Below are positions 5,922 to 46,535 of a stretch of 47,149 nucleotides of DNA, one piece after another. Under the pieces are notes generated by a model that saw only the letters and a program-made list of their open reading frames with translations, did no database searches and was not told the origin of the DNA. The stretch is from positions 1-47,149 of the forward strand of contig JAFGCP010000019.1 in NCBI GenBank assembly GCA_016932595.1, read 5' to 3'. The position numbers and the translations under genes are program-made. The stretch's first letter is position 1, and every line of letters begins with the position of its first letter. This DNA is from Deltaproteobacteria bacterium (GTDB taxonomy: Bacteria > Desulfobacterota > WTBG01 > CAIYCZ01 > CAIRTM01).

Positions 5922-6115
5922 CAGGGCTGCAGGGTCATTGCCCTGCTGCGCAGCTGGATCAGCGATACGCGCAGTCAAAAACCACCCGCATAGCGGGTAG
6001 CTTGGTGTCGCCCTGAAAGGGCGAAATCAAAAAACTCGGCGTTTTTGCTTTGCCTTCTTGAGGAACCATCGCCATAGGGATGGTTCGCGAAAAACAATAA
6101 AGGATGCTATAGCAT
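5922..6115. repeat. cluster of four short hairpins plus a 12-nt palindrome (REP-like, non-coding)
   Basis: CAGGGC..GCCCTG 5922-5945; ACCCGC-ata-GCGGGT 5984-5998; TCGCCC-tgaaa-GGGCGA 6008-6024; GAACCATC-N8-GATGGTTC 6063-6086; ATGCTATAGCAT 6104-6115. Confidence 0.5.
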
Positions 6116-6165
6116 GCAGGGAGGCTTGATGTACAAGGAATAAAAAAGGAGGTTCCGAACACAGG

Positions 6166-7593
6166 TTAATAATTGTAGTTCAACATGAAAAACACACGCT
6201 GGTCTGGCCTGCTGCCTGCGCGCAAGTCGGCTGCTATATCAGTGACTGAGCTGCGCAGCCCCATAAGGGTAAGCTGCATACTGTCTGTCACGCGCTGTGA
6301 ATAGGTAAGTGACATATCAAGCAGGCTGGAATCGCCGGAACGGGAGGCTGGCCCCAAAGCTGCACTGCTCAGCGAAGCGTATTTCAGCCCTGTCGAAAGC
6401 GACCAGCCAGCATCGGCGAGGGATCCGAGGCTCACATCAACACCAAGGGATCGGGTTGGCATTTCAAAAGCATCAAGCTCAGGCCCGTTATTGTAATATA
6501 TGAAAGATGGCGTAATACTCATCCATTGAAACGGTTTAATATCGCTGGCGATGCGAATTCCCTGGCTGTAGCTATAGGTTGAATACGCGCTAAACGGATC
6601 ATACACCGAAAGAGCCGCCTCTGAATCATCGCCATAAAGGTCAAATTCATCTCGAAAGGCGCCAAGGTGAAAGTTGCCGTATTTTCCGAGAATCGGCCGA
6701 ACATAGTCAATCTCGACGGACTGGGGCTTTTTCCCCTGACTTTTTTTCACCGCAGTGCGGTCAGCGGCAAAGGGGCTTTTTTCTATAGAGGAATAGCGCA
6801 CGTGCATGCCTGTATCGGGAGGAACATCCTCATCCTCATCCTGCTCATCCTCCCAATCCGAGAATTCATCAAAAGATCCGGGCCGCACCCCGGCCGTATG
6901 CTCAAGCCGTTTTGCCGACACCAGTCGTTTGCGCCAGTAATCGTCGTCCATGTTTGAGATCACGACACCACGCTTTGACTGGGCATGGATAAATTGCCCG
7001 CCGTCAAGATAAATTCCAACATGATCGATTCTCTTCTTTTTTGCCGAGGAAGCAAAAAATACGAGGTCGCCGGTTTTAAGAGCTTTTTCATTGAGTTTTG
7101 CAAACATGGGAAGATGGAACTGAGACTGTGCATTGTGCGGCAGATCCACCCCGAAAAGCTTCCGGTACATGCTGCGTGCAAAACCCGAACAGTCAAAGCC
7201 GTCGCCGCCGGTGCCGCCCCATTTATAACGTATGCCCAGATACCTTTCAAGCTCACTTTTCAGCTGCAGGTCTGCAACACGCCTGTTTACAGAAACGCCG
7301 GAAAAAGGCTTTATGCTGTTTTTTGTAAAAAATCCAGGAGGGGCCGCGGGAAGCTCGGAATTCCCTAATTTGACGGATTTCTTTGGTTTTGCTTTTGATT
7401 TTGCTTTTTTCTTAGTGTTTACAGTCTGCTTTTTAACGTTTGAGTGTTTCGAAACGGAAGGCTTTTGGCGAGCCTCTGCACCTGTGGCCATAATAGCAAC
7501 ACTAACAAACAGAAACACCATGTGAATTGTCAGCCGCAAAAACCGCTTGGTCTGCCATGATGCAATCCTGAAACATATTCTTTCTACCGTCAC
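6166..7593 (-). CDS. NlpC/P60-family peptidoglycan endopeptidase with acidic linker and beta-barrel-like C-terminal domain
   Basis: The NlpC/P60 core reads YKWGGTGGDGFDCSGFARSMY ... IDHVGIYLDGGQFIHA. The C-terminal ~190 aa show alternating hydrophobicity and end in FFMLNYNY. The true start may be the internal Met at 7521 (MVFLFVSVAIMATGAEA signal peptide). Confidence 0.8.
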   Translation of the reverse strand: MTVERICFRIASWQTKRFLRLTIHMVFLFVSVAIMATGAEARQKPSVSKHSNVKKQTVNTKKKAKSKAKPKKSVKLGNSELPAAPPGFFTKNSIKPFSGVSVNRRVADLQLKSELERYLGIRYKWGGTGGDGFDCSGFARSMYRKLFGVDLPHNAQSQFHLPMFAKLNEKALKTGDLVFFASSAKKKRIDHVGIYLDGGQFIHAQSKRGVVISNMDDDYWRKRLVSAKRLEHTAGVRPGSFDEFSDWEDEQDEDEDVPPDTGMHVRYSSIEKSPFAADRTAVKKSQGKKPQSVEIDYVRPILGKYGNFHLGAFRDEFDLYGDDSEAALSVYDPFSAYSTYSYSQGIRIASDIKPFQWMSITPSFIYYNNGPELDAFEMPTRSLGVDVSLGSLADAGWSLSTGLKYASLSSAALGPASRSGDSSLLDMSLTYSQRVTDSMQLTLMGLRSSVTDIAADLRAGSRPDQRVFFMLNYNY

Positions 7594-7824
7594 CGATACT
7601 CCCGTTTCTCTTGATTAATTTTGCGAGAATACAGCTCTAGATTCAGTATCACAATCAGTGGTGGATTGAGTCTTGCGAAAGCACAATACAATGCTTGTCA
7701 GTTTGGCCTGGTCTTTAATTAATGGTAAATATAAGCCACCTTAGTCAGCCATGTCAACTTAAAATCTTGTAACAGTGACCTAAAAAATATTATTTACTAT
7801 ATAAATATATATATAAATCACTAG

Positions 7825-9177
7825 TTATTGGTTATATTTAAATCGATTAAGATCAGGCACAAACTCCCGCCGCCGATCGCGTTCATATTCATACACTGTT
7901 CGGCCAAGCTCGGCAAGAAAAGGCATACCGACCGAATCATACTCATATCTGCCGTCCTTGAGAACCTGATCGCTGTTGACATAAATAACAGCACTCAGAA
8001 AAAATTCAATGCCGCATTCAAAGTCGGCGATATAGGCGCAGTCTGAAAGATACCCGTCGGACTGACCAACGATATTAAAAATCCGCATCTGGCCAGAGCG
8101 CATACCGGCACGGGAGCCGGCGGCATCGCCAAAAACAAAATACTTTTTGTAATTGTCGGGGTATTTACTTTTTGAAGCATAGGACGATATACCGGACTCG
8201 CCGGGCAGCATGCACAGATAGCGTCTAATAAACCGGTAATCGTCGGGGGTGAGCCCGAAGCGCTGGTGAGGGGGAAACGCTTCGGGAAAAAGTACCGCCA
8301 TAAGCATTGTGTTCACATCGGCAAGGCTCAGGTTGTTGGAATAGGTGTAATCATAGGGCTCGGCTGTATATCTGCCCCTGCAGTCAAGATAGCCCCTGCC
8401 CCGCTTTAAATTCGGCAGCGGATTGACAAAGGGCTTCAGATTTACCTGCTGGGGCTGGGAATACACCAACTGGCCCAGATCACTGTAAAAAAAGAACGGA
8501 TTGGTGTACCTGTTCTCATCGTAGTCGCAGTTGCAGAAACGGCGGATGATGCGCACATCGGGGTATCCCATGGCGCGAAGATTTTCATGAATATATGCCT
8601 GACCGAGAAATTCATACAGGCGGTTATAGGCATCATTGTCGCTGACAAGCAGCACTTTCTTTATATAGTGCGCTATGCTTGCCCGGCCGCCGGGGGCGGT
8701 GGCGTCCTGGGAAACGGCAGTCTGGCAAGCCTGCTGCTTGCCGATGGTAAGGCGCGTGCTTTTATCAAGCCCCGGTATATTCAGCTGATTGAGCTTTTGC
8801 AAAGCAAGGCACAGAACGGGCAGCTTTACCATGCTGGCAGGATTAAAATAGGCGCGCGGGTTGAGCCGGTAGACATACTCCTTGAAAGAGGGCCTGTTTT
8901 CCCGGTCACGGTTTATCTGGGTATAGAGAATCTGCACCTCATACCTGCCCGGATTGTCCAGAATATTTCTGAATTTTGCAGGCCGGGAGGCAAGCAGATC
9001 AGAGAGCAAATGCGGCGTGTCCGGCACGCGTGAAGGTTCCGGAGAGCAGCGGCTGGGCGAGCGCACAGCCGCTGTCTGCAAAGGCTGCTGTATATCGGGG
9101 GCTCTACAGGCTCCAAGTGAGATTGCCAGAGAGCAAAGGAGTATGCCGGTAAAAAATCTTCTTTTAGCAATGTTCAC
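7825..9177 (-). CDS. lipoprotein, class A beta-lactamase-like serine hydrolase
   Basis: GTG start. Lipobox LAISLGAC. SxxK motif (ASMVKLP) and SDN motif (LLVSDNDAYN). The start overlaps the upstream stop by 4 nt (GTGA). Confidence 0.75.
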   Translation of the reverse strand: MNIAKRRFFTGILLCSLAISLGACRAPDIQQPLQTAAVRSPSRCSPEPSRVPDTPHLLSDLLASRPAKFRNILDNPGRYEVQILYTQINRDRENRPSFKEYVYRLNPRAYFNPASMVKLPVLCLALQKLNQLNIPGLDKSTRLTIGKQQACQTAVSQDATAPGGRASIAHYIKKVLLVSDNDAYNRLYEFLGQAYIHENLRAMGYPDVRIIRRFCNCDYDENRYTNPFFFYSDLGQLVYSQPQQVNLKPFVNPLPNLKRGRGYLDCRGRYTAEPYDYTYSNNLSLADVNTMLMAVLFPEAFPPHQRFGLTPDDYRFIRRYLCMLPGESGISSYASKSKYPDNYKKYFVFGDAAGSRAGMRSGQMRIFNIVGQSDGYLSDCAYIADFECGIEFFLSAVIYVNSDQVLKDGRYEYDSVGMPFLAELGRTVYEYERDRRREFVPDLNRFKYNQ

Positions 9178-10373
9178 TGCTGCGCCTGTGTTTTTTTGCG
9201 GGCAACCAGCATATTTGATTGATTGGCATAGCCCAGACGGAAGCCGAGTTTTTTTGAATCCTGGGCATAGGCTTCCTTCAAATCCTTTTCAAGATGCACC
9301 TTGAAAAGCTCTATGGGAGCGGAGTACGTGCCATAGAGCCTGATATCCCATGCATCCTTATCAAAAAAACGGTACGGTATGGCCGAATCATCCTGCACAA
9401 CAGCAGCGCTTTTTTCCAGTATCAGGGAGCGTATGTTTGAAAAATAGTTCTTGTGCATCAGATACGAGGCTGATTTCACATAGGTAATGCTGCCCGGCTG
9501 AAGATGCTGAAGGAACGCCCGCACATTCCCCCTGCGTTCGAGACCCTTGTCTGAAATATCGGCGCTGATATATATAAGATTGCGCATATGCGTATCGCCC
9601 CTGCCTTGAAATGCAAAGGCAACTCCCCGCGGAACATGTTTATAGCCTTTACTTCCTGGTCCGGCATCGCGATAAACGATTGTTCCGTTATCTGTGAGAT
9701 CAATAAAACGCATGTCTGCAATGTGATTTCCCGTGCGGGCAAGAAACAGCATCAAAACCGGTGTTGTGCCGGTTATAAGCTTATGATTGATCTCTTCGGC
9801 CATATCGTTTGTTCTAAAAAAGCTGAGGGTAAGCGCATCGGATATGGAGAGATCAAGCATTTTAAAGAAAGGGCCGAGTTTTGCTCCTTGCAGCTTTTCG
9901 GGTTCTGGAGCGCAGCCCACCGGCTCAAGCCCCACTAAGATATACGTGTCGGCATAAGGGAAAAACGAATGGGCATACAGAAAATCCGGGCCGCTGAAGG
10001 GATAAAAAAGCGTCCGGCAGTCCCTGCTCAAATCGGGTATTTCAGCCTGTGCCCAGCCTGTGATCTTTTTAATTTTTGTAGCGGAGAAATGTTTCCATGT
10101 ACCTCCGGTAACAGAAGCATAGTTAATCCAGATGGCGTTTTTTGTCAGGCTGTACAGTCCGCTCCCAGCGGAAATCTTCATGCCCGCTATGTACCGGGCA
10201 ATATCATTAAACCGAACAATAGTCGGCTCCGGTGTTTTAACGTCAGCAGAAAACCGGGGGGTTGAGTTGTTGTCCGGGGCAACCGGCATGACCTGTTGCG
10301 CACGGCAGAACGCAGCAGGCAGGGCTAGAAGCACCATCAGCATGATATAAAAAAAAATTTTTCTTTTTTCCAT
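9174..10373 (-). CDS. secreted conserved-looking hypothetical protein
   Basis: 399-aa ORF with an N-terminal signal peptide. It is tightly packed between the permease (11-nt gap) and the hydrolase (4-nt overlap). No motif I can assign. FYPFSGPDF is a distinctive stretch. Confidence 0.7.
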   Translation of the reverse strand: MEKRKIFFYIMLMVLLALPAAFCRAQQVMPVAPDNNSTPRFSADVKTPEPTIVRFNDIARYIAGMKISAGSGLYSLTKNAIWINYASVTGGTWKHFSATKIKKITGWAQAEIPDLSRDCRTLFYPFSGPDFLYAHSFFPYADTYILVGLEPVGCAPEPEKLQGAKLGPFFKMLDLSISDALTLSFFRTNDMAEEINHKLITGTTPVLMLFLARTGNHIADMRFIDLTDNGTIVYRDAGPGSKGYKHVPRGVAFAFQGRGDTHMRNLIYISADISDKGLERRGNVRAFLQHLQPGSITYVKSASYLMHKNYFSNIRSLILEKSAAVVQDDSAIPYRFFDKDAWDIRLYGTYSAPIELFKVHLEKDLKEAYAQDSKKLGFRLGYANQSNMLVARKKTQAQQ

Positions 10374-34839: not shown

Positions 34840-36723
34840 TTACTGCTGCGGCTTATGCCGTATGGTCTCTATATACTGTTCAAATTTAAATTTCGGGTCA
34901 TCATCGGGCCCATGACAGGTTCGGCATATCTGCTCGACAACACAGCTGTCGCATGAACCGCCCAGGCCGACGATATAGTCCTGCCCCTTTTTCTCGGGAT
35001 TCTGTATATGCCGCTCGCCAGGACCGTGACAGGCCTCGCACTGAACACCCTCTCTGCCGGGGGCTGGATAACCGCCGGGACTGCCCGAACCCGTAGTAAA
35101 CCGATATTTTTTCTCCGGCGGCGCCGCTGCAGCCGCCGGAGAATGTGCTACAGCCGCATGGGCTGTTGTTGACCACTGTGCATACTCATGCTCATGGCAT
35201 TTTTTGCATGATTCCGCCCCGATATACGCAGCCGGATTTCCGAAAAGATCATTTTTCCGCTTATGCTCGCTTAGCAGTTTCACCCGCTGCTCCCGGCTCA
35301 TGGATGCAATGCCGGATGCAGCGCTATGCAAAACTTTCGGAAAGCGGCGGGCGAAATTGAAGTTGAGCGATTCCTTTTCCGTATGGCAGGACAGGCACAG
35401 GGCCTTCCATTCTTCTGAACTTTTCTTGTGCGGCTTTATGCCGGTAAATGCCGCGCAGGCTTCATAGCCGGGGCCATGGCAGGATTCGCACTGTACGCCT
35501 TCTAAGAAGCGTCTATTCATTTTGTCATTAATCGCATAGCCGCCTTGCTGACCCCAGCCCGTTACATGACAGCTGACGCATGCAGGGTCATCCTCCCTGC
35601 CTTTGCGGTACACAGATTTAAATGCATCGGCGTGTCCGGTAAGGCTCCACTGTATATGCTCCTTTTCGTGACAAATTACGCAACGGTCCTGGCCAGAATA
35701 GCCTTTGGGATTTAACAGAGGCTTATTCGGCAAACCGCACAGTTTGCGCAACTCCATAAAATACAAATCCATCATCCTGCCTGAAAAGCCTGTATGCTTG
35801 GCATAAATACGGCCAGAACGGTCTATGATAAACCCCATCGGCACAGAGCCGGCAAAAGACGGAAACAAAGAAGAAATGCTGTTGTCCGTATCCGCTATAA
35901 CAGGAAAAGAATAGCGCTGCTGCTTGATGAACAGGTTTGTCTGCTCCTGATTGAAACGGCTCACGGCAACAACAAAAAACTTGCCCTTGAATTCATCTCC
36001 CATAAGCAGGCTGTTAAGAAAGGCCAGTTCATCACGGCAATGGCCGCAGGTTGGCGACATGAACACAATAACAACAGGCATCATGGCGTACAGCTCTTGT
36101 ATGCTCATCTTCGTGCCATCGAGTTTCGGCAGATCAAAAACAGGGGCCATCGGCCTGTCGCCAAGAACAGGCTCGTCAGCGGGGATAAAGCCCGTCTTGA
36201 TGCTGCGATTGACGAAAACATGCAACGCCTGCGTGAAATTTTTCTGCGGCGGAATATTTACAGCAGCCAGGCTGCTCATGAGTCCGCCCTGTTTGTTAAA
36301 TATATACAGAGAAAGATCACCCGCTAGATTCAGGCTTTTAGCTGCCACTTTTGGGTTTTCAAGCAGCAGGGGGAAAGTGGCGTTATGATTCTGGTTGAAT
36401 TTAACAACTTCATCAGTGCGGTTGTCATTGATATTGAGGCCCAGCACCTCGAAATTATATTCTCCTCTGATGCGATACATGTCCTGCATAAACTTGACAG
36501 CCTCGCCCGCGCGGGGATTGTCGATGGAATAGGCAAGCAGCAGAATTGTTTTGCCCTTGAAGCGCTCCGCATCAAAAGGCGCGGACACCGGCTGATGAGG
36601 CACAATGCGCTTGACGGGGGCAGGAACATTGACGGGAGGACGAGCAAAGGGTTGTGAATAAACGCTCTCCGCGGTGGGGAATACTAACCATAATAGAACA
36701 GCCGCAACAATTTTTTTTCTCAT
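34840..36723 (-). CDS. periplasmic fusion: two TlpA/thioredoxin-like domains + heptahaem cytochrome c
   Basis: 627 aa with a signal peptide. The second redoxin domain carries CGHC (SPTCGHCRDE). The first has no CxxC. The C-terminal half has seven CxxCH motifs: CVICH, CVSCH, CESCH, CLSCH, CKKCH, CEACH, CRTCH. Confidence 0.85.
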   Translation of the reverse strand: MRKKIVAAVLLWLVFPTAESVYSQPFARPPVNVPAPVKRIVPHQPVSAPFDAERFKGKTILLLAYSIDNPRAGEAVKFMQDMYRIRGEYNFEVLGLNINDNRTDEVVKFNQNHNATFPLLLENPKVAAKSLNLAGDLSLYIFNKQGGLMSSLAAVNIPPQKNFTQALHVFVNRSIKTGFIPADEPVLGDRPMAPVFDLPKLDGTKMSIQELYAMMPVVIVFMSPTCGHCRDELAFLNSLLMGDEFKGKFFVVAVSRFNQEQTNLFIKQQRYSFPVIADTDNSISSLFPSFAGSVPMGFIIDRSGRIYAKHTGFSGRMMDLYFMELRKLCGLPNKPLLNPKGYSGQDRCVICHEKEHIQWSLTGHADAFKSVYRKGREDDPACVSCHVTGWGQQGGYAINDKMNRRFLEGVQCESCHGPGYEACAAFTGIKPHKKSSEEWKALCLSCHTEKESLNFNFARRFPKVLHSAASGIASMSREQRVKLLSEHKRKNDLFGNPAAYIGAESCKKCHEHEYAQWSTTAHAAVAHSPAAAAAPPEKKYRFTTGSGSPGGYPAPGREGVQCEACHGPGERHIQNPEKKGQDYIVGLGGSCDSCVVEQICRTCHGPDDDPKFKFEQYIETIRHKPQQ

Positions 36724-38186: not shown

Positions 38187-38495
38187 TCAATCACCATAAA
38201 CAGTGGTGGTATATTTACCGATAACGCCAAGTATGTTCTCAACATGATAATCGACGTATTTAATCGATTTGATACCGCCGTTCTTCACCGCTGTCTGAAT
38301 GCTGGCGTCACCTGTTGCGACCAAACCGAGCACCGACGAGGCTTCAGACTTGCCTACCTTTGTATAGCCCACAGGGCCGTCAGCAGAGGCAATGCCGGCA
38401 TCAACCTTCGTGTAGATAACGCCCATGGGCTGATACGATGCACAACCCGCAAAAACAAACCCTGTCAAAATAACAATTGCCATCAGCTTTTTCAT
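38187..38495 (-). CDS. small lipoprotein, TRL-like family
   Basis: MKKLMAIVILTGFVFAGC lipobox. Motifs G.IYT......A..G, GKSEASSVLGLVATGDASIQTA and KNGGIK.I..VD resemble the TRL domain. Confidence 0.7.
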   Translation of the reverse strand: MKKLMAIVILTGFVFAGCASYQPMGVIYTKVDAGIASADGPVGYTKVGKSEASSVLGLVATGDASIQTAVKNGGIKSIKYVDYHVENILGVIGKYTTTVYGD

Positions 38496-38936
38496 TGGTA
38501 CCTCCTTTATGTAATTAAAATGGATTTTTTACTCGATAAAACCTAAGTTTATTTATAATAGTGTATCAGTAGTGTCCCAACGTTTGAAAAATTGGCGAAT
38601 AAAATTAGCTAACCCATTGTTTTTTCATAGCGCTATCATGCGTTTAAAATTCAAATCGATGCAGGTCTGAAAAACGCTAAAACCCTTAATAAATAAGCTT
38701 ATAATCATTTTTTGTCATTCAACATTGGGACGTTTCTGATAGTGTATTATTTCAAAAAATTCAACCATGTTTCTTTACTTTTAGACACATATTATCCGTC
38801 AATTCACGAAAATTTTCTTTGTCATTCTTCCTCGTAAAAAATGACCACCCAGCGGCAATATCAGAGGCTGTTCAAGTGTTTTTGGCCTGTAATAATGCAA
38901 ACAGATTGTAGTCGGTGCAGGCCTTAAAGTCCGCTA

Positions 38937-38965
38937 TTGACAAAGGTTACTTTAACAATTAAACT
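38937..38965 (+). promoter_or_regulatory. sigma-70-like promoter TTGACA-N17-TAAACT for the AOR operon
   Basis: Consensus -35 with exact 17-nt spacing. The site lies about 40 nt upstream of the ATG at 39007. Confidence 0.5.
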
Positions 38966-39006
38966 TTTATAAAACAAACTATTCATAAGCTAAAGAAGGG
39001 AGCGCC

Positions 39007-39690
39007 ATGAACTGGGACACAGAAGAAATTAAAAACCAGCTACTAGCTGTTTCGCGGCGGGACTTTATCAAATTTTCAGGAATGGCCGTCGTTGGCATCT
39101 ATATGACCGGCTGCACCCCCGGGCTGGGCTTTAAAAAAGCCTCCTGGGGGTTCATCCTCGTTGATATGAATAAATGTCAGGGCTGCCAGTCCTGCATGCT
39201 GGCCTGCTCCCTGGTGCATGAGGGCGCCATAAACCTTTCCTCTTCACGCATCCAGGTGCTGAGCGACCCTTATGGCAAGTTCCCCGATGACATAACGATC
39301 TCGCAATGCCGCCAGTGCACGAAACCGGCCTGCCTGCAAGCCTGCCCCACGGGGGCCCTTGCCCGTGACCGCAGGCACGGCAATGTTGCCACCATTGACC
39401 CAGCCAAATGCATAGGCTGCCAAAAATGCATCAATGCATGCTCCTGGGCGCCGGCACGGGCTATCTGGAACAATGAAACAGGAAAATCGCAAAAATGTGA
39501 TCTATGCGCGAGCGCTTCATACTGGGATGAAACAGGCGGCCCAAAGGGCAAAAAGGCCTGTTTGGAAATATGCCCGATGGGGGCCATCGCCTTTTCACAT
39601 ATCATACCCGCTCAGGATGATCCGGACAGCTACAATATCGATCTGGATAACACTACCGCCCAGGCAGCTGGTGCTGCCCGCGCAGGATAA
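39007..39690 (+). CDS. Tat-signal 4x[4Fe-4S] ferredoxin-type subunit (DmsB/YdhX-like)
   Basis: Twin-arginine motif SRRDFIKF plus a hydrophobic stretch ending in MTGC. Cys clusters: CQGCQSCMLAC, CRQCTKPACLQACP, CIGCQKCINAC, CDLC...CLEICP. Confidence 0.85.
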   Translation: MNWDTEEIKNQLLAVSRRDFIKFSGMAVVGIYMTGCTPGLGFKKASWGFILVDMNKCQGCQSCMLACSLVHEGAINLSSSRIQVLSDPYGKFPDDITISQCRQCTKPACLQACPTGALARDRRHGNVATIDPAKCIGCQKCINACSWAPARAIWNNETGKSQKCDLCASASYWDETGGPKGKKACLEICPMGAIAFSHIIPAQDDPDSYNIDLDNTTAQAAGAARAG

Positions 39691-39771
39691 TCCATACCTG
39701 TCACCATGAACGGGCGTCAGTAGCGCAAGCACAGCTATAGGCGATTTCAACTCACAGTGGAGGACATCGAT

Positions 39772-41862
39772 ATGTACGGCTATACGGGCAAGCTGCTCAG
39801 AATTAACTTAACGACCAGAGCCGTTTCTGAAATGGCAACGAACGATTATACACAATGGGGAGGTGGTCACGGCATTGGCTCAGCCGTTTTTTTCGACCTT
39901 GTACCCGACAAAACAATCGGCTGCTATGACCCGGCAAATGTCGTTACCATCATGACATCGCCCCTGTCAGGAACCCTCACCCCGGGCTGCTCATCACGCT
40001 CCGAAGTTCAGGGCATCGGCGCACAGGCCTACCCTTACAGCTGGTTTACCAGAAGCGGCTTTGGCGGCAGATTTTCATCCATGCTGAAATTTGCCGGCTG
40101 GGATGGAGTGATTATTGATGGCGCTGCAGACCAACCGGTGTGGGTCGATGTCAGAAATGATTCAGTCACCATCCGCAACTGCTCGGATCTTTCCCTCTGG
40201 GGTAAAGATACCTGGGATTGCCAGGCAACACTTTGGAACTATGTACGAGGAACAGACGCTACCAATGCCTGGAGCACCCCGCAGACAGGCTCCGGCGGGC
40301 GCACAACGCAGCGGCCGGCCGTTCTTGCCATAGGGCCTGCCGGCGAGAATCTCAGCCGTTCTGCCGTCCTCATCCACGATGCAGCCTGCGCTTCGGGACA
40401 GGGCGGCTTTGGCGCTGTATGGGGCTCAAAAAAGCTCAAGGCCATAAGCGTTATCGGCACGGGAAGCATCCCTATTTATGACCCCAAGGCGCTCATGAAA
40501 ACACGCATTGATCATGTTCGCAAGTATGCCAATCATACCGATAACCCAATTTCCACCTCGATTCCGAACAATTTTCAAAGCCCGCCGGGCGCCGGGGTGG
40601 TATGGGAAATGATACCTGGATTCAAACATACTTCAGGCATGCGGCCTTCGGCATGCATCGGCTGTCACAGTGCCTGCAAGTTGCGCTATGCGGACGGGCT
40701 TGGCAATGATGCTGTCTGTTCAGATTCAGCATTTTATTGTCTGGGAGCAAAAAGCCCTGATATCGCCTATCGCGCTACCGACCTTTTGAATACATTAGGG
40801 ATCAATTCCCTTGAAGCATACTATTGCATAGGTTATGTCCTGGAACTGCTCAAAATAGGTATTATCGGCCCGGGCACGGCCATCGAATGCCCCAGCTTCA
40901 TCACCTTAGATAATTACGGAACCTATGAGTTTATTGAGCAGTTTTTAAAAATGCTGGCCTACGGAGATGACGGAAAGGGCAACCCTTCTCAGTTCGGGCA
41001 GGATATCGAACAAGGCGCCCTGCGTGCCGCTGCAAAATGGGGCAGGCTCGATGAGGATCTCGCCTCAGGTCTGCTGAACTACCCCTACTGGGGATACCCG
41101 TATCATTATGACCCCCGTGCGCAGCTTGAGTGGGGCTACGGCTCTATTCTCGGTGACCGTGACATAAATGAGCACTGCATCTACCGGCTCAAATACCTGG
41201 GTGGCGGAGCTTTTTACGGTAAGAATGAAGCGCCCATTACCATGGGAGAAGCTGTGAACATTATACTGGCTAAAATGGCCCCCTTTAACGATGATGAACT
41301 CATACTGGATTTCAGTGAGACAAATATGTATTCCGAACACATGGCAAAGTTCGTGTCGTGGCACCGTTATTATACGCGGTTCTGGAAGCAGTCTATGCTC
41401 TTCTGCGATTCGCGGTGGCCGGATTTTGTGAACCCGTATGCCGATGATTTCGTCGGCTCCACAGGTCAGGCAGAACCTGCATATCTGAAGGCAGTGACCG
41501 GCAATGATTTTTCTTTTGAGGACGGCATCGAGCTTGGCAAAAAAATCTGGAATCTTGATCATGCCATCTGGACACTGCAGGGCCGCCATCGCGACATGGT
41601 GAACTTTTCAGAATTTTATTATACGAACACCTGTAAAGATGCTGCTAAGAATTATTTTGGTAAAGTCGATGGCACATGGACCTACATAAGCGCTGAAGGA
41701 AGAACGGTTGACCGGGTAAAATTCGAGGAGTTTAAAACGGCCTTTTATGAGCTGCAGGGCTGGGATACGGCTTCGGGCTATCCGACCAGAGCAACCCTTG
41801 AATCACTCGGCATGAAAGACGTTGCCGATGAACTGTCTGCAAAAGGAAAACTCGGCTCGTGA
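39772..41862 (+). CDS. aldehyde:ferredoxin oxidoreductase-family (W/Mo-pterin) enzyme, long YdhV-like form
   Basis: MYGYTGKLLRINLTTRAVSE is the N-terminal AOR signature. GPAGENLSR, GFGAVWGSKKLKAISV and C-terminal LQGWDTASGYPTRATLESLG are also present. GGAGGA lies 7 nt before the ATG at 39772. Confidence 0.88.
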   Translation: MYGYTGKLLRINLTTRAVSEMATNDYTQWGGGHGIGSAVFFDLVPDKTIGCYDPANVVTIMTSPLSGTLTPGCSSRSEVQGIGAQAYPYSWFTRSGFGGRFSSMLKFAGWDGVIIDGAADQPVWVDVRNDSVTIRNCSDLSLWGKDTWDCQATLWNYVRGTDATNAWSTPQTGSGGRTTQRPAVLAIGPAGENLSRSAVLIHDAACASGQGGFGAVWGSKKLKAISVIGTGSIPIYDPKALMKTRIDHVRKYANHTDNPISTSIPNNFQSPPGAGVVWEMIPGFKHTSGMRPSACIGCHSACKLRYADGLGNDAVCSDSAFYCLGAKSPDIAYRATDLLNTLGINSLEAYYCIGYVLELLKIGIIGPGTAIECPSFITLDNYGTYEFIEQFLKMLAYGDDGKGNPSQFGQDIEQGALRAAAKWGRLDEDLASGLLNYPYWGYPYHYDPRAQLEWGYGSILGDRDINEHCIYRLKYLGGGAFYGKNEAPITMGEAVNIILAKMAPFNDDELILDFSETNMYSEHMAKFVSWHRYYTRFWKQSMLFCDSRWPDFVNPYADDFVGSTGQAEPAYLKAVTGNDFSFEDGIELGKKIWNLDHAIWTLQGRHRDMVNFSEFYYTNTCKDAAKNYFGKVDGTWTYISAEGRTVDRVKFEEFKTAFYELQGWDTASGYPTRATLESLGMKDVADELSAKGKLGS

Positions 41863-41880: not shown

Positions 41881-42882
41881 TCAGGCTCCTGCCCTGCCTC
41901 GGGACATCTGCACCGCCATTTTAATGGCGCTCACCAGGCTGGCCGGGCTGGCAATTCCCTTGCCGGCAATATCATAGGCTGTGCCGTGGTCAACCGAGGT
42001 GCGGATGATGGGAAGGCCGAGGGTAACGTTCACTCCCGTATCAAAATGCAGGAGCTTCAACGGAATCAGCCCCTGGTCATGATACATGCAGACAACAGCA
42101 TCATAGCGGCCCCGGGCAGCATAATAAAAAAGGGTATCTGCCGACATTGGACCGACGACATCTATACCCAGCCGACAGGCTTCAGCCACCGCAGGAGCTA
42201 TCACATTTTTCTCTTCTTCACCAAAAAGCCCGCCCTCCCCTGCATGGGGATTAAGCCCCGCAACAGCAAGACGCGGATTTTTGCCCCCAAGCACTTTCTT
42301 CAGGCTCTCGTGTGTTATCGTAATTGTCTTGAAAATTTTTTCAGTGGTGAGAAGTTGCGGCACATCGACATACGCGCAGTGTATGGTCGCCAGCACCACA
42401 CGCAGGGTTTCTCCGGCAAGCATCATAACAACATCTTTTGTGCCGGTAAGCTCGGCAAGCATCTCGGTATGGCCGGGATACTTATAGCCGGCATCATGCA
42501 GCACCATTTTATTAATGGGCGCGGTGACTATGGCATCAATCTTTGCGGCCTTTGCCATGGCAACCGCCTCGATGATGCTCCCGGCCATGGCCTTGCCGCC
42601 AGCAACTGAGGGCTTTCCATAGGATATTTCCGAAGGATTCAGGCAGGAAATTTGAATAAGCCCTGCAGCGCCGAAAGCAATTTCAGGTGGAGCAGCAGCA
42701 TCAAAAAAACAAGGCAGTCCAAGCCGGGCTGCCTCCCGTTCAAGAATACCTTTATCTCCAAAGACTACCGGGCGGCAGATCGATATAACATTTTTTTCCT
42801 GCAGGGCTTTCATTATAATTTCTGGCCCGATACCGGAAGGGTCGCCCATGGTGATGCCGATAACAGGCAGTTTGTCAGACAT
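41881..42882 (-). CDS. pdxA: 4-hydroxythreonine-4-phosphate dehydrogenase
   Basis: MSDKLPVIGITMGDPSGIGPEII ... TSVDHGTAYDIAGKG. I chose the internal ATG at 42882. The longer track ORF would overlap hisE. Confidence 0.9.
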   Translation of the reverse strand: MSDKLPVIGITMGDPSGIGPEIIMKALQEKNVISICRPVVFGDKGILEREAARLGLPCFFDAAAPPEIAFGAAGLIQISCLNPSEISYGKPSVAGGKAMAGSIIEAVAMAKAAKIDAIVTAPINKMVLHDAGYKYPGHTEMLAELTGTKDVVMMLAGETLRVVLATIHCAYVDVPQLLTTEKIFKTITITHESLKKVLGGKNPRLAVAGLNPHAGEGGLFGEEEKNVIAPAVAEACRLGIDVVGPMSADTLFYYAARGRYDAVVCMYHDQGLIPLKLLHFDTGVNVTLGLPIIRTSVDHGTAYDIAGKGIASPASLVSAIKMAVQMSRGRAGA

Positions 42883-42925
42883 AACGCACCCACAAAAAAA
42901 ACCGGGACAACGCCCCGTCTCCGGC

Positions 42926-43279
42926 CTAGTAAGCCTTTGTTTTCCTGCTCTCTTTTTCAGCAATGCCGGAAACGCCCCAGCGGCGTTGCAACTCGGCATA
43001 GACCTCATCAGGCTCTATTTCCCACTGACCCAGCAGCACCATGGTATGAAAAATAAGGTCAGCTGTTTCGTGAACAATATGGCCCCGATCCCCAAGCTCG
43101 GATGCCTCGACCAGTTCGCCGGCTTCCTCAACGATCTTGGAATGTATCTTCTTCGTTCCTTTTACGAACAGCGATGCCACATAGGAATCCGGACTGGGGC
43201 TTTCCTTGCGCTGCCGTATAACTTCATACAACCGGTCCAGAATTGCGGCGTCACTTTTTATAGACTGCTTCTTCATCAA
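42926..43279 (-). CDS. hisE: phosphoribosyl-ATP pyrophosphatase
   Basis: [46 protein letters not shown]. Confidence 0.88.
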
Positions 43280-43646
43280 AAAGCTTCTCCCCTATTTCGT
43301 CAAATGAGGCGCCGTTCCACTTGCGATAGAAACATGAGCGGTACCCGGTGTGACATGCCGCTACAATCTGCTCGACCTTCATGAGAATGCAGTCTGCGTC
43401 GCAGTCGACAAACACTTCCTTGACCTGCTGCGTGTGGCCGGAGGATTCGCCCTTCATCCAGTATTTCTGCCTCGAACGGCTCCAAAAATGTGTTTTGCCT
43501 GTTTCAAGGGTGGATTTAAGAGACTCCCGATTCATGTAGGCAACCATCAGCAGTTCGCCGTTTTGATAATCCTGAACCACCACGGGCACCAGTCCGTTTG
43601 CATCGTACTTTACCGCATCTAAAATTTCCATAGCCGTTGTCTCCAA
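43251..43646 (-). CDS. hisI: phosphoribosyl-AMP cyclohydrolase
   Basis: [27 protein letters not shown]...[20 protein letters not shown]...DCD.D. An alternative start lies at 43631. Confidence 0.92.
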
Positions 43647-43708
43647 AAAAATATTTAATATGTCCGCTGAAGCGGAATTATTTTGCAGGAGCAGTTGCCG
43701 AAATAAGG

Positions 43709-44485
43709 TTATACCAGCCGTACAGGAACACCCTTTGCATGCAGGTACTGCTTGACCTCCCTGATAGAGTGCGTGCGATAGTGAAAAATAGAGGCTGCCA
43801 GGACTGCATCGGCCTCGCCCTGAACGATGCCGTCATAGAGATGCTCCATGGTTCCCACCCCACCCGAGGCTATCACCGGTATGGTGACGGCCCGGGATAT
43901 TGCCTGCGTCATGGGCAGATCAAAGCCTTCCTGCGTGCCGTCGCGGTCCATGCTGGTCAGCAGTATCTCCCCTGATCCAAGGGTTTCCATCTTTCGGGCC
44001 CAGGCAACGGCATCGATGCCGGTAGGGGTTCTGCCGCCATGGATGAAAACCTCCCACGGGCTTTCGGAGTCGCTGCCGGCACGGGTACGTTTTGCATCTA
44101 CTGCCACCACAATGCACTGGCTGCCGAACTTTTCTGCGGCAGCCCGCACAAAGTCCGGTTTATTGACCGCGGCGGTATTTATGGACACCTTATCCGCCCC
44201 GGCATTGAGAAGATTGCGTATATCATCAAGGTCACGAATGCCGCCGCCAACCGTCACCGGCATAAACACCTCGGCGGCCGTGCGTTCAACCACTTCCAGA
44301 ATGATATCTCGGCGCTCATGGGAAGCGGTGATGTCGAGAAACACCAGTTCATCGGCGCCCTCGGCATCGTAAAATCTGGCATTGTCAACCGGGTCGCCGG
44401 CATCGCGCAAATTGACAAAATTGACGCCTTTCACCACACGGCCGTCCTTCACGTCGAGGCAGGGAATGATACGTTTTGCAAGCAT
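43709..44485 (-). CDS. hisF: imidazole glycerol phosphate synthase, cyclase subunit
   Basis: [23 protein letters not shown]. Confidence 0.96.
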
Positions 44486-44547
44486 AAAAAAAGTTTTATT
44501 AATTCTATTGGTTACATTGGTTGAACTAATTCAACTAATTGAACAAA

Positions 44548-45279
44548 TCAAACATGATTTTGCGTCAGTGCAATTGCTTCTGTAAGGTCAAGGCCGCCCG
44601 TGTACAGGGCACGTCCGATAATAATCCCCATAATGCCTGATGATTCCACGGATAGCAGATTTTTAACATCCTCGATGCGCGACATGCCGCCGGAGGCAAT
44701 AACGGGAATTGAAATCGAGGATGCAAGTTTTGCCGTTTCTTCTACATTGGGGCCTGTAAGCATGCCGTCACGGCTGATGTCGGTATAGACGATTGACTCA
44801 ACAGCCTCAGGATCAAGCTGGCGGGCAAGATCAACTGCGCTCAGCTTGGTGCTCTCTGTCCAGCCTTGTACCGCTACCATGCCGCTCTGAGCATCTATGC
44901 CGATAATGATCCGGCCGGGATATTTTTTGCAGCATGCATCCCTGAACGCTGGATCGCGCACGGCAGCAGTTCCGAGAATCGCGTATTTCACGCCGGCGGC
45001 AAGGTATTCATCAACCGTTCTGATATCGCGGATGCCGCCGCCGAGCTCTACCTCCATGCCCACCGACGCGCATATCCTTTTCACCAGCTCCCTGTTGCGC
45101 GGCTCGCCTGACACAGCGCCGTCGAGGTCAACAATGTGCAGCCGTTGTGCGCCCAGGGACTCCCAGCGCCTGGCCACTTCCACGGGGTCGCTGGAATACA
45201 CCGTCGCATCCTCCATGCGCCCCTGCGAGAGGCGGACGGCCTGGCCGTTTTTCAAATCAATTGCGGGAATAATGATCAT
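44548..45279 (-). CDS. hisA: ProFAR isomerase
   Basis: MIIIPAIDLKNGQAVRLSQG. GAAAGG RBS before the ATG at 45279. Confidence 0.93.
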   Translation of the reverse strand: MIIIPAIDLKNGQAVRLSQGRMEDATVYSSDPVEVARRWESLGAQRLHIVDLDGAVSGEPRNRELVKRICASVGMEVELGGGIRDIRTVDEYLAAGVKYAILGTAAVRDPAFRDACCKKYPGRIIIGIDAQSGMVAVQGWTESTKLSAVDLARQLDPEAVESIVYTDISRDGMLTGPNVEETAKLASSISIPVIASGGMSRIEDVKNLLSVESSGIMGIIIGRALYTGGLDLTEAIALTQNHV

Positions 45280-45305
45280 TGAAGACCTTTCAGAAACTGG
45301 CCGCA

Positions 45306-45944
45306 CTATGCACGGTCAGCAAAAGAGGTGAAATTTTTCAGAAGCTGAAGGCCCACAGCCTGACTCTTTTCAGGATGAAACTGGCAGGCGAAAATATTGT
45401 CCTTCCAGATACTTGAAACAAATTCAGCGCCATAGCCGGTAGTGGTGGCAATGACCGCCGGGTCATCAGGAGCAACATAATAGGAATGGACAAAATAAAA
45501 ATGGGCCCCTGCTTCGATGCCGCTCAGATGCGGAGCCTGTTTTCTGACGCTCAGGACATTCCACCCCATGTGGGGAATTTTCAGGAGCCTTCCGCCTGAA
45601 TCGCGCTGTTCCGCGGGAAAGCGTACCACCCGGCCTTTGATCACATCAAGGCCGGGGCATGACCCGAATTCCTCGCTGTCTGAAAACAAAATCTGCAGGC
45701 CGAGGCAAATGCCCAGAAATGGCTTGCCAGACCTGATGGATGAAACAATGGACGATATGAGCCCGAGGCGATCGAGATTTTCAAAGCATTTTCTGAAGGC
45801 GCCGACACCGGGCAGAACAAGGGCTCGCGCATCGTCAACGGCCTGCGCCGAAGTTACTATCCCGGCAGTGCATCCGGATTTCTCAAAAGCCTTTTGAACG
45901 CTTCGCAAATTGCCCATGCCGTAGTCGATGATGGACACATGCAT
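45306..45944 (-). CDS. hisH: imidazole glycerol phosphate synthase, glutaminase subunit
   Basis: IIDYGMGNLRSVQKAFE ... PGVGAF ... GICLGLQ ... FHPEKS. Confidence 0.95.
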   Translation of the reverse strand: MHVSIIDYGMGNLRSVQKAFEKSGCTAGIVTSAQAVDDARALVLPGVGAFRKCFENLDRLGLISSIVSSIRSGKPFLGICLGLQILFSDSEEFGSCPGLDVIKGRVVRFPAEQRDSGGRLLKIPHMGWNVLSVRKQAPHLSGIEAGAHFYFVHSYYVAPDDPAVIATTTGYGAEFVSSIWKDNIFACQFHPEKSQAVGLQLLKNFTSFADRA

Positions 45945-45947
45945 TGA

Positions 45948-46535
45948 CTAGAGCACTCCCTTGGTCGAGGGCACGCCCGTTATGCGGCCGTCAAGCTGCG
46001 TGGCGCGATCCAGAGCACGGCCAAGGGCCTTGAATACCGCCTCGATAATATGATGACTGTTCTTGCCATAGGGGACATTAATATGCAGCGTTGCCCTGCA
46101 GTTATTGACAAGGGCCTGCAAAAACTCCTCAACCAGCTCGCTGTCGAACTCGCCGACTTTGCTTTTCAGGTCTGGGGCATTATAGACCAGACATGGCCTG
46201 CCACTGAGGTCAAGCGTTACATCTGCCAGCGCCTCATCCATGGGCACAGCAGCCTGACCATAGCGGCAAATGCCCGCCTTGTCGCCCAGTGCCTTCACAA
46301 TCGCCTGTCCGAGGCATATACCGATATCCTCGACCGTATGATGAAAGTCAATGGCCGTATCGCCCTTGGCCAGCACGGTCAGATTGAAGAGCCCGTGCCT
46401 TGCGAAAAGCTCAAGCATATGGTTGAGAAACGCCACTGGTGTCTGAACGCTATAGGAGCCTGCTCCGTCGATGTCAAGGGCAACCGTAATCTCGGTTTCT
46501 GTTGTTTTTCTTTCAATACGGGCTGAACGTTCCAT
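45948..46535 (-). CDS. hisB: imidazoleglycerol-phosphate dehydratase
   Basis: [16 protein letters not shown] ... [11 protein letters not shown] ... [11 protein letters not shown]. Confidence 0.95.

Follow-up and report, generated by a model that had tools for sequence, protein, structure and literature searches.

The DNA analysed here comprises positions 1 to 47,149 (forward strand) of contig JAFGCP010000019.1 of a Deltaproteobacteria bacterium (assembly GCA_016932595.1), and this whole stretch is referred to below as the window. It includes, on its + strand, two adjacent genes that we term S and L. The first (P0001, 39007..39690) is an open reading frame (ORF) of 227 amino acids (aa) which encodes a WorS/YdhY-type ferredoxin with the cysteines for four [4Fe-4S] clusters: the protein matches the Pfam Fer4 dicluster families, and 16 of its 17 cysteines fall into four groups of the CxxCxxCxxxC type (57/60/63/67, 101/104/109/113, 135/138/141/145 and 164/167/185/189), the 17th being Cys36. 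The second gene (P0002, 39772..41862) encodes 696 aa from an ATG codon and corresponds to a pterin subunit of the aldehyde oxidoreductase (AOR)/WOR family. Both AFOR_N (PF02730; E 5.7e-44, 150.7 bits, cut-off 29.8) and AFOR_C (PF01314; E 6.7e-21, 75.3 bits, cut-off 27) are matched above the Pfam gathering score. Residue 1 of L aligns with residue 1 of the solved cytoplasmic AORs, the AOR fold having no N-terminal extension ahead of it, and L is therefore considered to lack a signal peptide. An original prediction, made from the letters of the window, had described the pair as a 227-aa four-cluster ferredoxin with a twin-arginine leader next to a 696-aa AOR-family protein without signal peptide, and both descriptions were confirmed.

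The two genes are separated by a spacer of 81 nt (39691..39771, + strand), in which no terminator-like site was found on the + strand. A GGAGGA sequence at 39759-39764 lies 7 nt before the start codon of L, and the Shine-Dalgarno sequence of S, AGAAGGGAG, lies 4 nt before its ATG. A GTG codon at 39757 is an alternative start for L; the ATG at 39772 is the better one, because of the GGAGGA 7 nt ahead of it and because the residues MYGYTGK, which it opens, align with residue 1 of the solved AORs.

The leader of S (39007..39114, + strand) reads MNWDTEEIKNQLLAV-SRRDFIK-FSGMAVVGIY-MTGC36. An n-region is followed by S16-R-R-D-F-I-K22, which fits the S/T-R-R-x-F-L-K consensus of the twin-arginine translocation (Tat) pathway, and then by a hydrophobic stretch (h-region) of 13 residues, with M-T-G-C36 after it. 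These last residues fit a relaxed form of the lipobox, [LVI..][ASTVI][GAS]-C. The genome encodes TatC together with three TatA/B/E homologues, and the motif, the hydrophobic region and the presence of the machinery identify S as a predicted Tat substrate.

We then looked at the conservation of the pair. A pattern scan with one genome per species returned 221 loci encoding a relative of L, and 79 distinct loci were examined. Almost all of them come from metagenome-assembled genomes (MAGs), of Thermodesulfobacteriota, Planctomycetota, Chloroflexota, Aminicenantes, Gemmatimonadota, Latescibacterota, Bacteroidota and others. The L family consists of proteins of 675-730 aa and comprises 1859 clusters at 90% identity (E <= 0.001) among 8000 candidates scored; the best 120 relatives, the first of which is the protein of the window itself, are 55-100% identical to L and all but one are full-length. 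A homologue of S scoring above 100 bits is present in 64 of the 79 loci, and in 58 of these 64 it is situated directly upstream of L, on the same strand and within 300 nt. It is located further upstream in two (355 and 1021 nt) and downstream in three (L037, L041 and L043), while in L053 it abuts an N-terminally truncated L. Fifteen loci are without S, 11 of them being cut by the end of the contig. Within the order to which the window belongs, a match at E <= 1e-100 was obtained in 12 of 21 genomes and in 7 of 12 genera (the window genome included), often in two copies. The window genome (G000) is itself a MAG of 460 contigs with 13 AFOR_N matches, and it carries a second S-L pair on the - strand of contig C116 (3764-6547), with an L that is 49% and an S that is 56% identical to those of the window.

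Some unusual arrangements of L were also recorded. Locus L065 contains two L genes in tandem (5956-10137; 54% and 53% identical to P0002) and no S homologue in its 11 kb. In L012 (5974-7873) the L gene of an 87%-identical relative is split into two overlapping ORFs, and in a second record of this relative, in genome G006 (C13:79660-81523), it is interrupted by an in-frame TGA. The gene could be frameshifted or a pseudogene, or the assembly could be in error.

The leader was compared among the 60 S homologues with an intact N-terminus; four were excluded from the count, three of them truncated at a contig start (L011, L017 and L031) and one split (L068). Every one of the 60, from many phyla, retains the RR motif; its absence from orthologues, which would have counted against the original prediction, was not seen. 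The lipobox, which the original prediction had raised as a reading of MTGC, turned out to be a feature of part of the family: a lipobox-like Cys located 20-26 residues past the start of the motif was observed in only 16 of the 60, plus two near-misses, yet it is retained in the closest relatives of the window pair and in the C116 paralogue, whose leader reads TRRDFLKYSG...SAAGC. In L010, L012, L013, L016, L086 and L087 (56-91% identity to the S protein of the window), [GAS]-C is placed 20-21 residues past the start of the RR motif; other close relatives either are without it (L014 and L058) or show a near-miss (FNGC in L015). In most other lineages the hydrophobic region closes with sequences such as AVAAIPAS.

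Genes recurring beside the pair were sought by clustering crude gene calls of the 79 loci in an all-against-all BLASTP comparison. The main clusters correspond to L (79 loci) and S (60 loci); besides these two, 10 of the 79 loci is the most that any gene family reaches, and homologues of YdhW, YdhU and YdhT were not detected at E <= 1e-3 either in the genome or in the 79 loci. The most frequent minor neighbour is a beta-lactamase-family serine hydrolase (10 of 79 loci, directly downstream of L in seven), followed by an alpha/beta hydrolase (nine), a Tat-signal aldo/keto reductase (six), a DUF6599 protein (five) and a Tat-signal flavoprotein resembling old yellow enzyme (three). Such recurrent neighbours are mostly exported proteins placed downstream of L, in loci which include L023, L028, L037, L038, L053 and L055, and they may hint at a periplasmic degradative context in those subsets of loci. 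None of the hydrolase, reductase, DUF6599 or flavoprotein genes is present in the window. As to an anchor or cytochrome partner, which the original prediction had not seen next to the pair, a cytochrome gene does exist 2.3 kb upstream on the other strand; it is nevertheless not conserved with the pair (two of 79 loci), so that the absence of a conserved partner is upheld.

We next considered the metal site of L. Four cysteines, C295, C298, C302 and C545 (CxxCxxxC plus a distal Cys), correspond to the ligands of a [4Fe-4S] cluster and are invariant in 26 of 26 clade members; the first three align with C288, C291 and C295 of 1aor. Cys316 is likewise invariant in the 26 members and is a candidate ligand to the metal. 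In a MAFFT alignment of 112 family members it shares one column with Cys336 of YdhV, and in a 61-row alignment this column holds Cys in 56 of 57 non-canonical rows; since two of the four canonical-type paralogues also have Cys there, the column alone is not fully diagnostic. According to the portions of a 2025 review drawn on here (PMC12096430), Cys336 of YdhV and Cys322 of BamB bind the metal as protein ligands and have no counterpart in any other AOR/WOR clade, and the YdhV and BamB clades are without the second-shell residues of the aldehyde-oxidising AORs. The column of the Pyrococcus furiosus AOR residue Glu313 is occupied in P0002 by D318, two residues past Cys316, and varies among the 26 clade members (T in 10, E in six, S in four, D in three, A in two and one other). 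The combination that characterises AOR sensu stricto, a conserved catalytic Glu and a metal with no protein ligand, was thus not found in L. As judged from these alignments, the metal site of L is of the cysteine-ligated YdhV/BamB type, and because Cys316 is invariant and the catalytic Glu column variable, L is probably not a generic aldehyde oxidoreductase.

An AlphaFold2 model of L was computed from 26 sequences (mean predicted local distance difference test (pLDDT) score 65.8, predicted template modelling score 0.70) and was used for no residue-level claim. Foldseek retrieved with it AOR-family chains only (nine matches at E <= 0.001, template modelling scores 0.46-0.54), BamB not being separated from AOR. 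Regarding the choice between tungsten (W) and molybdenum (Mo), the genome encodes TupA-like and TupB-like proteins, scoring 252 and 169.5 bits and both below the NCBIfam cut-offs, as well as ModA and ModB, which lie above theirs.

The original prediction had likened the pair to E. coli YdhV and its partner YdhX. L does align with YdhV end-to-end (BLASTP E 3e-43, 153 bits), with 26% identity and 19% gaps. On the NCBIfam YdhV equivalog model NF007354 it scores 213.4 bits against a cut-off of 868, and when YdhV was compared to the proteins of this genome, three other paralogues scored higher (185, 176 and 176 bits) than L; the named YdhV clade, with Proteus, Cetobacterium, Oxobacter and Alkaliphilus among its genera, shares 54% identity or more with YdhV in the best 120 hits. 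The two C-terminal motifs that had been taken as a likeness to YdhV, WGYPYHYDP and GWD..SGYPTRATLESLG, are both found in L, but GWD...LG is common to the whole AOR family. As for the partner, the proposal of a YdhX-type protein was not borne out, S being nearer to YdhY (E 2e-24) than to YdhX (E 3e-17). Among solved structures, S is matched best by small subunits from AOR-family complexes (8c0z_C, E 8.1e-20; 9mqx_E, 4.2e-17; 6x6u_B, 5.5e-16).

Three trees of L and its relatives were built, leaving out representatives shorter than 600 aa and containing no BamB or other PDB sequence. With FastTree and 112 rows, the clade of the window comprises 39 rows (support 100) and the YdhV clade is a single long branch. 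A quick IQ-TREE search of 61 rows, which leaves out 58 of the 112 and adds seven named YdhV-clade proteins, gave a window clade of 18 rows and a YdhV clade of eight, both with support 100. In a careful IQ-TREE search of 44 rows, from which 17 further rows were left out, the long-branch C57, C311 and P0262 among them, the two clades have 11 and six rows and support 100/100 each. The 61-row tree has both clades within a group of 57 cysteine-type rows, apart from the four canonical-type paralogues (Shimodaira-Hasegawa-like approximate likelihood ratio test 99), which places L outside the canonical AOR branch, as the prediction of an export-type enzyme had implied. The 44-row tree groups the window clade with P0158 and P0168 (96/88) and has YdhV nested with P0185 and P0217 (97/98), on a weak backbone (29/12). 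When the window and YdhV clades were constrained to one group, the approximately unbiased test gave p 0.69 for the 61-row quick tree, the constrained tree being 24.95 log-likelihood units better than the free search, and p 0.037, a marginal rejection, for the 44-row careful tree, the constrained tree being 49.9 units worse; a sister relation of the two is not established. We conclude that the clade of the window and that of YdhV are separate branches within a single cysteine-type superclade. That L might be the YdhV orthologue was ruled out by the 26% identity, the equivalog score (213 vs 868 bits), the separate 100%-supported clades and the higher-scoring paralogues.

The closest described systems are the Class V WORs. 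In the portions of Putumbaka et al. (2026, PMC13328260) drawn on here, these are defined by a WorS that has a Tat signal, a transmembrane domain or both, are confined to clade 41 of a 92-clade WorL tree, have no known activity and have, in every enzyme, at least one further subunit. YdhY is given there as the WorS partner of YdhV, and E. coli YdhV is stated to prefer Mo. The L subunit of Cetobacterium somerae, CsWOR41L, is reported in the same portions as the only Class V large subunit tested; the metal it bound was mostly W, and of 46 aldehydes it oxidised not one (PMC13328260). The window pair agrees with the operational definition of Class V, a WorS with a Tat signal, and differs from the statement on a third subunit, as far as the definition is given in those portions. 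It shares with YdhV/YdhY and CsWOR41-LSW the combination of an AOR/WOR L and a Tat-signal polyferredoxin S, inferred to be periplasmic, as well as an L of about 700 aa, Cys in the metal-ligand column and the lack of a known substrate in both. Even the layout of the YdhY leader (LTRLEFLRISG...SLLGC) is that of S, with a Tat-like motif, a hydrophobic stretch and, in YdhY, LLGC. Unlike the Class V enzymes as described in that source, the window pair is without a conserved third subunit, its L is 26% identical to YdhV and it belongs to a separate clade. Of the 37 representative genera of Table S3, 35 were compared with the titles of the records behind the 79 loci, and none of these 35 was found there. 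The literature searched contained no account of a Tat-WOR in a two-gene form with a lipobox or lipoprotein anchor.

BamB resembles L in its AOR family, in a protein Cys at the metal and in the absence of the AOR catalytic Glu (PMC12096430, in the portions drawn on), and also in having a polyferredoxin partner, BamC. It differs in being cytoplasmic and part of the BamB-I complex of about 1 MDa; its similarity to L is weak (E 1.5e-22, confined to the N-terminal domain), and no bam-type neighbours occur at the S-L loci. Another paralogue of the genome, C255, was evaluated as a close BamB orthologue and rejected. The cytoplasmic L-S AORs (Aromatoleum AOR 8c0z, P. furiosus WOR5 6x6u and the bifurcating AOR 9mqx) have the same L-S module and the same fold of L, whereas they have no Tat signal, no Cys ligand and an aldehyde chemistry with a conserved Glu.

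The pair is flanked upstream by a gene for a TRL-family lipoprotein (38187-38495, - strand) and downstream by pdxA, followed by histidine-biosynthesis-like ORFs that were named from reading the ORFs (41881-46535, - strand). The latter are convergent with L, 18 nt separating the stop of L from that of pdxA. The cytochrome gene mentioned above (34840-36723, - strand) is 2.3 kb upstream of the pair and encodes an exported protein of 627 aa with two AhpC/TSA (thioredoxin-fold) regions and a multihaem cytochrome c part (Cytochrome_C554 and MtrC-like matches). This thioredoxin-fold/heptahaem cytochrome gene (cluster 15) recurs in L010 and L012, both 87% identical in L. In one Gemmatimonadota MAG (L027:282-4415) a pstSCAB-like phosphate transporter operon stands directly upstream of the S-L pair. 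Among the six loci with an ATP-binding cassette (ABC) ATPase neighbour (cluster 4) examined by a Pfam scan it is the sole case with such a set, the other five having unrelated ABC systems. A Pho-box-like pattern matched the window five times, versus 3.35 +/- 1.78 in shuffled sequences, with none better than 3 mismatches. Control of the window clade by the Pho regulon is not supported.

The spacer between the TRL lipoprotein gene and S (38496-39006) is unusually long (511 nt) and AT-rich. It contains a 30-nt imperfect inverted repeat (38555-38584 and 38721-38750, 77% complementary) and two copies of TTTGTCATTC located 107 nt apart. The promoter proposed in the original prediction, TTGACA-N17-TAAACT (38937..38965, + strand), is indeed present 41 nt upstream of the start codon of S. 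It matches the sigma-70-like consensus at 10 of 12 positions and is the best site between 38400 and 42100, but the number of promoter-like sites in that interval (five) is not above chance (4.5 +/- 2.0 in shuffles); it is a plausible promoter, not statistically distinguished. No Rfam match was obtained upstream (38300-39900, E <= 1), neither a riboswitch nor another RNA family. No RNA data set was listed as carrying the sequence. An RNA-library contig of 163 nt, from the same study as the best-matching DNA record, covers 40096-40234, which does not show transcription.

We consider it likely that the two genes constitute an operon for a heterodimeric W- or Mo-pterin oxidoreductase which resides outside the cytoplasmic membrane, exported by Tat through S and tethered by the lipobox. 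S, with four [4Fe-4S] clusters, and L, with its pterin and one [4Fe-4S] cluster, would fold, acquire cofactors and associate while still in the cytoplasm, the association being deduced from homology to the solved AOR-family L-S complexes. The complex would then pass TatABC on the twin-arginine signal of S, L being the passenger. Hitch-hiking of this kind is known from the small and large subunits of [NiFe] hydrogenases and from DmsAB, in which the RR signal sits on one subunit and its partner, cofactor-loaded but with no signal of its own, is exported along with it; these belong to unrelated catalytic families, and here it is the ferredoxin subunit that bears the signal. Because the signal ends in a lipobox in this lineage, S would probably be cleaved and lipidated at Cys36, so that the enzyme would be tethered to a membrane face in the periplasm. 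The cluster chain of S would link the pterin site to soluble periplasmic carriers, e.g., multihaem cytochromes c, which are the most likely partners; the pair has no conserved membrane or quinone subunit. In sulfate reducers, the soluble hydrogenases and formate dehydrogenases of the periplasm likewise exchange electrons with soluble carriers. The core of the original prediction, a Tat ferredoxin that takes a signal-less AOR-family subunit to the periplasm, is thus supported, its export step being deduced from sequence features.

A number of points weigh against this interpretation, and some of them lend weight to other explanations. Four loci (L063, L064, L065 and L085) have at least 890 nt upstream of L and no S in the locus sequence. 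The window genome is 76% complete, and a partner gene could be encoded elsewhere. The model of L is of moderate quality, with pLDDT below 50 in residues 263-323 around the active site, and for this reason the placement of Cys316 at the metal is taken from the alignment. What the analysis shows is the gene anatomy, the conservation of the motifs, the linkage of S to L, the position of the clade and the presence of Tat genes, while the binding of S to L, export, lipidation, electron partners and chemistry are deductions. With respect to lipidation, a lipobox-like Cys is missing from 44 of the 60 orthologues, which means that the family can do without it, and in the window S, M at -3 and T at -2 are allowed but atypical, not being the commonest lipobox residues. 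The protein might hence be exported and not lipid-modified, the Cys of MTGC being incidental: either signal peptidase I would cut it, leaving a soluble enzyme, or the uncleaved N-terminus would serve as a membrane anchor. The recurrence of [GAS]-C in the lipobox register in the six close relatives named above and in the C116 paralogue argues against this, and we regard it as unlikely on balance, though a serious contender. A further explanation would dispense with export: the RR leader would be a remnant, the enzyme cytoplasmic and the N-terminus of S a chaperone-binding tag or a tether to the inner face of the membrane. Remnant Tat leaders occur on cytoplasmic molybdoenzymes, and in E. coli YdhY, to which S is closer than to any other named protein, R-R is replaced by a degenerate R-L, which indicates that Tat-like leaders in the S/YdhY family can decay. 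Remnants drift, however, and RR is retained, together with complete n- and h-regions, in 60 of 60 orthologues from many phyla. The motif is followed by a lipobox or, in other lineages, by an h-region that closes in A-x-A-like fashion, and Tat machinery is encoded in the genome. We hold a remnant leader to be very improbable.

The chemistry may be debated independently of the location. An exported complex of S and L could be a broad-spectrum aldehyde oxidoreductase that detoxifies or harvests aldehydes, which would amount to ordinary AOR chemistry in a new place. L does contain AFOR_N and AFOR_C domains, its relatives are annotated as aldehyde:ferredoxin oxidoreductases, and the exported hydrolases and reductases beside some pairs would fit a periplasmic breakdown of esters to aldehydes; those neighbours are, however, missing from the window and from most loci. 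The Glu313 column is not conserved in the 26 clade members, and an invariant Cys stands in the YdhV/BamB ligand column; in BamB, according to the portions of PMC12096430 drawn on, this Cys shields the metal from first-shell substrate binding. The failure of CsWOR41L to oxidise any of 46 aldehydes (PMC13328260, in the portions drawn on) points in the same direction, and aldehyde oxidation is in our view improbable.

The cysteine-ligated, Tat-exported heterodimer that we favour adds a minimal, lipobox-bearing form, from a separate clade, to the kind of enzyme described in 2026. We advance more tentatively, as a possibility short of probable, that the window clade represents a second family, very widely distributed and different from YdhV and clade 41, of W/Mo pterin enzymes with Tat export and a cysteine-ligated metal. 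Such a family may extend over at least 221 species-level genomes of many phyla; its members would be periplasmic S-L heterodimers, free or lipid-tethered, with no membrane subunit, whose electrons would pass via the soluble cytochrome c pool, and they would act on a substrate outside the cytoplasm in a reaction not involving aldehydes, e.g., a BamB-like reduction at low potential. If this is true, it would extend the published claim, as worded in the portions of the source drawn on, by which WORs linked to Tat are restricted to clade 41 and are never without a third subunit. Exported AOR-family enzymes have been recognised only in 2026, none of them with a known reaction, and the window clade is common in uncultured anaerobes of sediments, soils and wastewater. 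With two genes only and an export signal that is always kept, it is maybe the simplest form to express and assay. Identification of its substrate and metal would tell what is done by the thousands of genes that currently bear the label 'aldehyde ferredoxin oxidoreductase', and would reveal whether cysteine-ligated pterin sites perform low-potential chemistry outside the cytoplasm.

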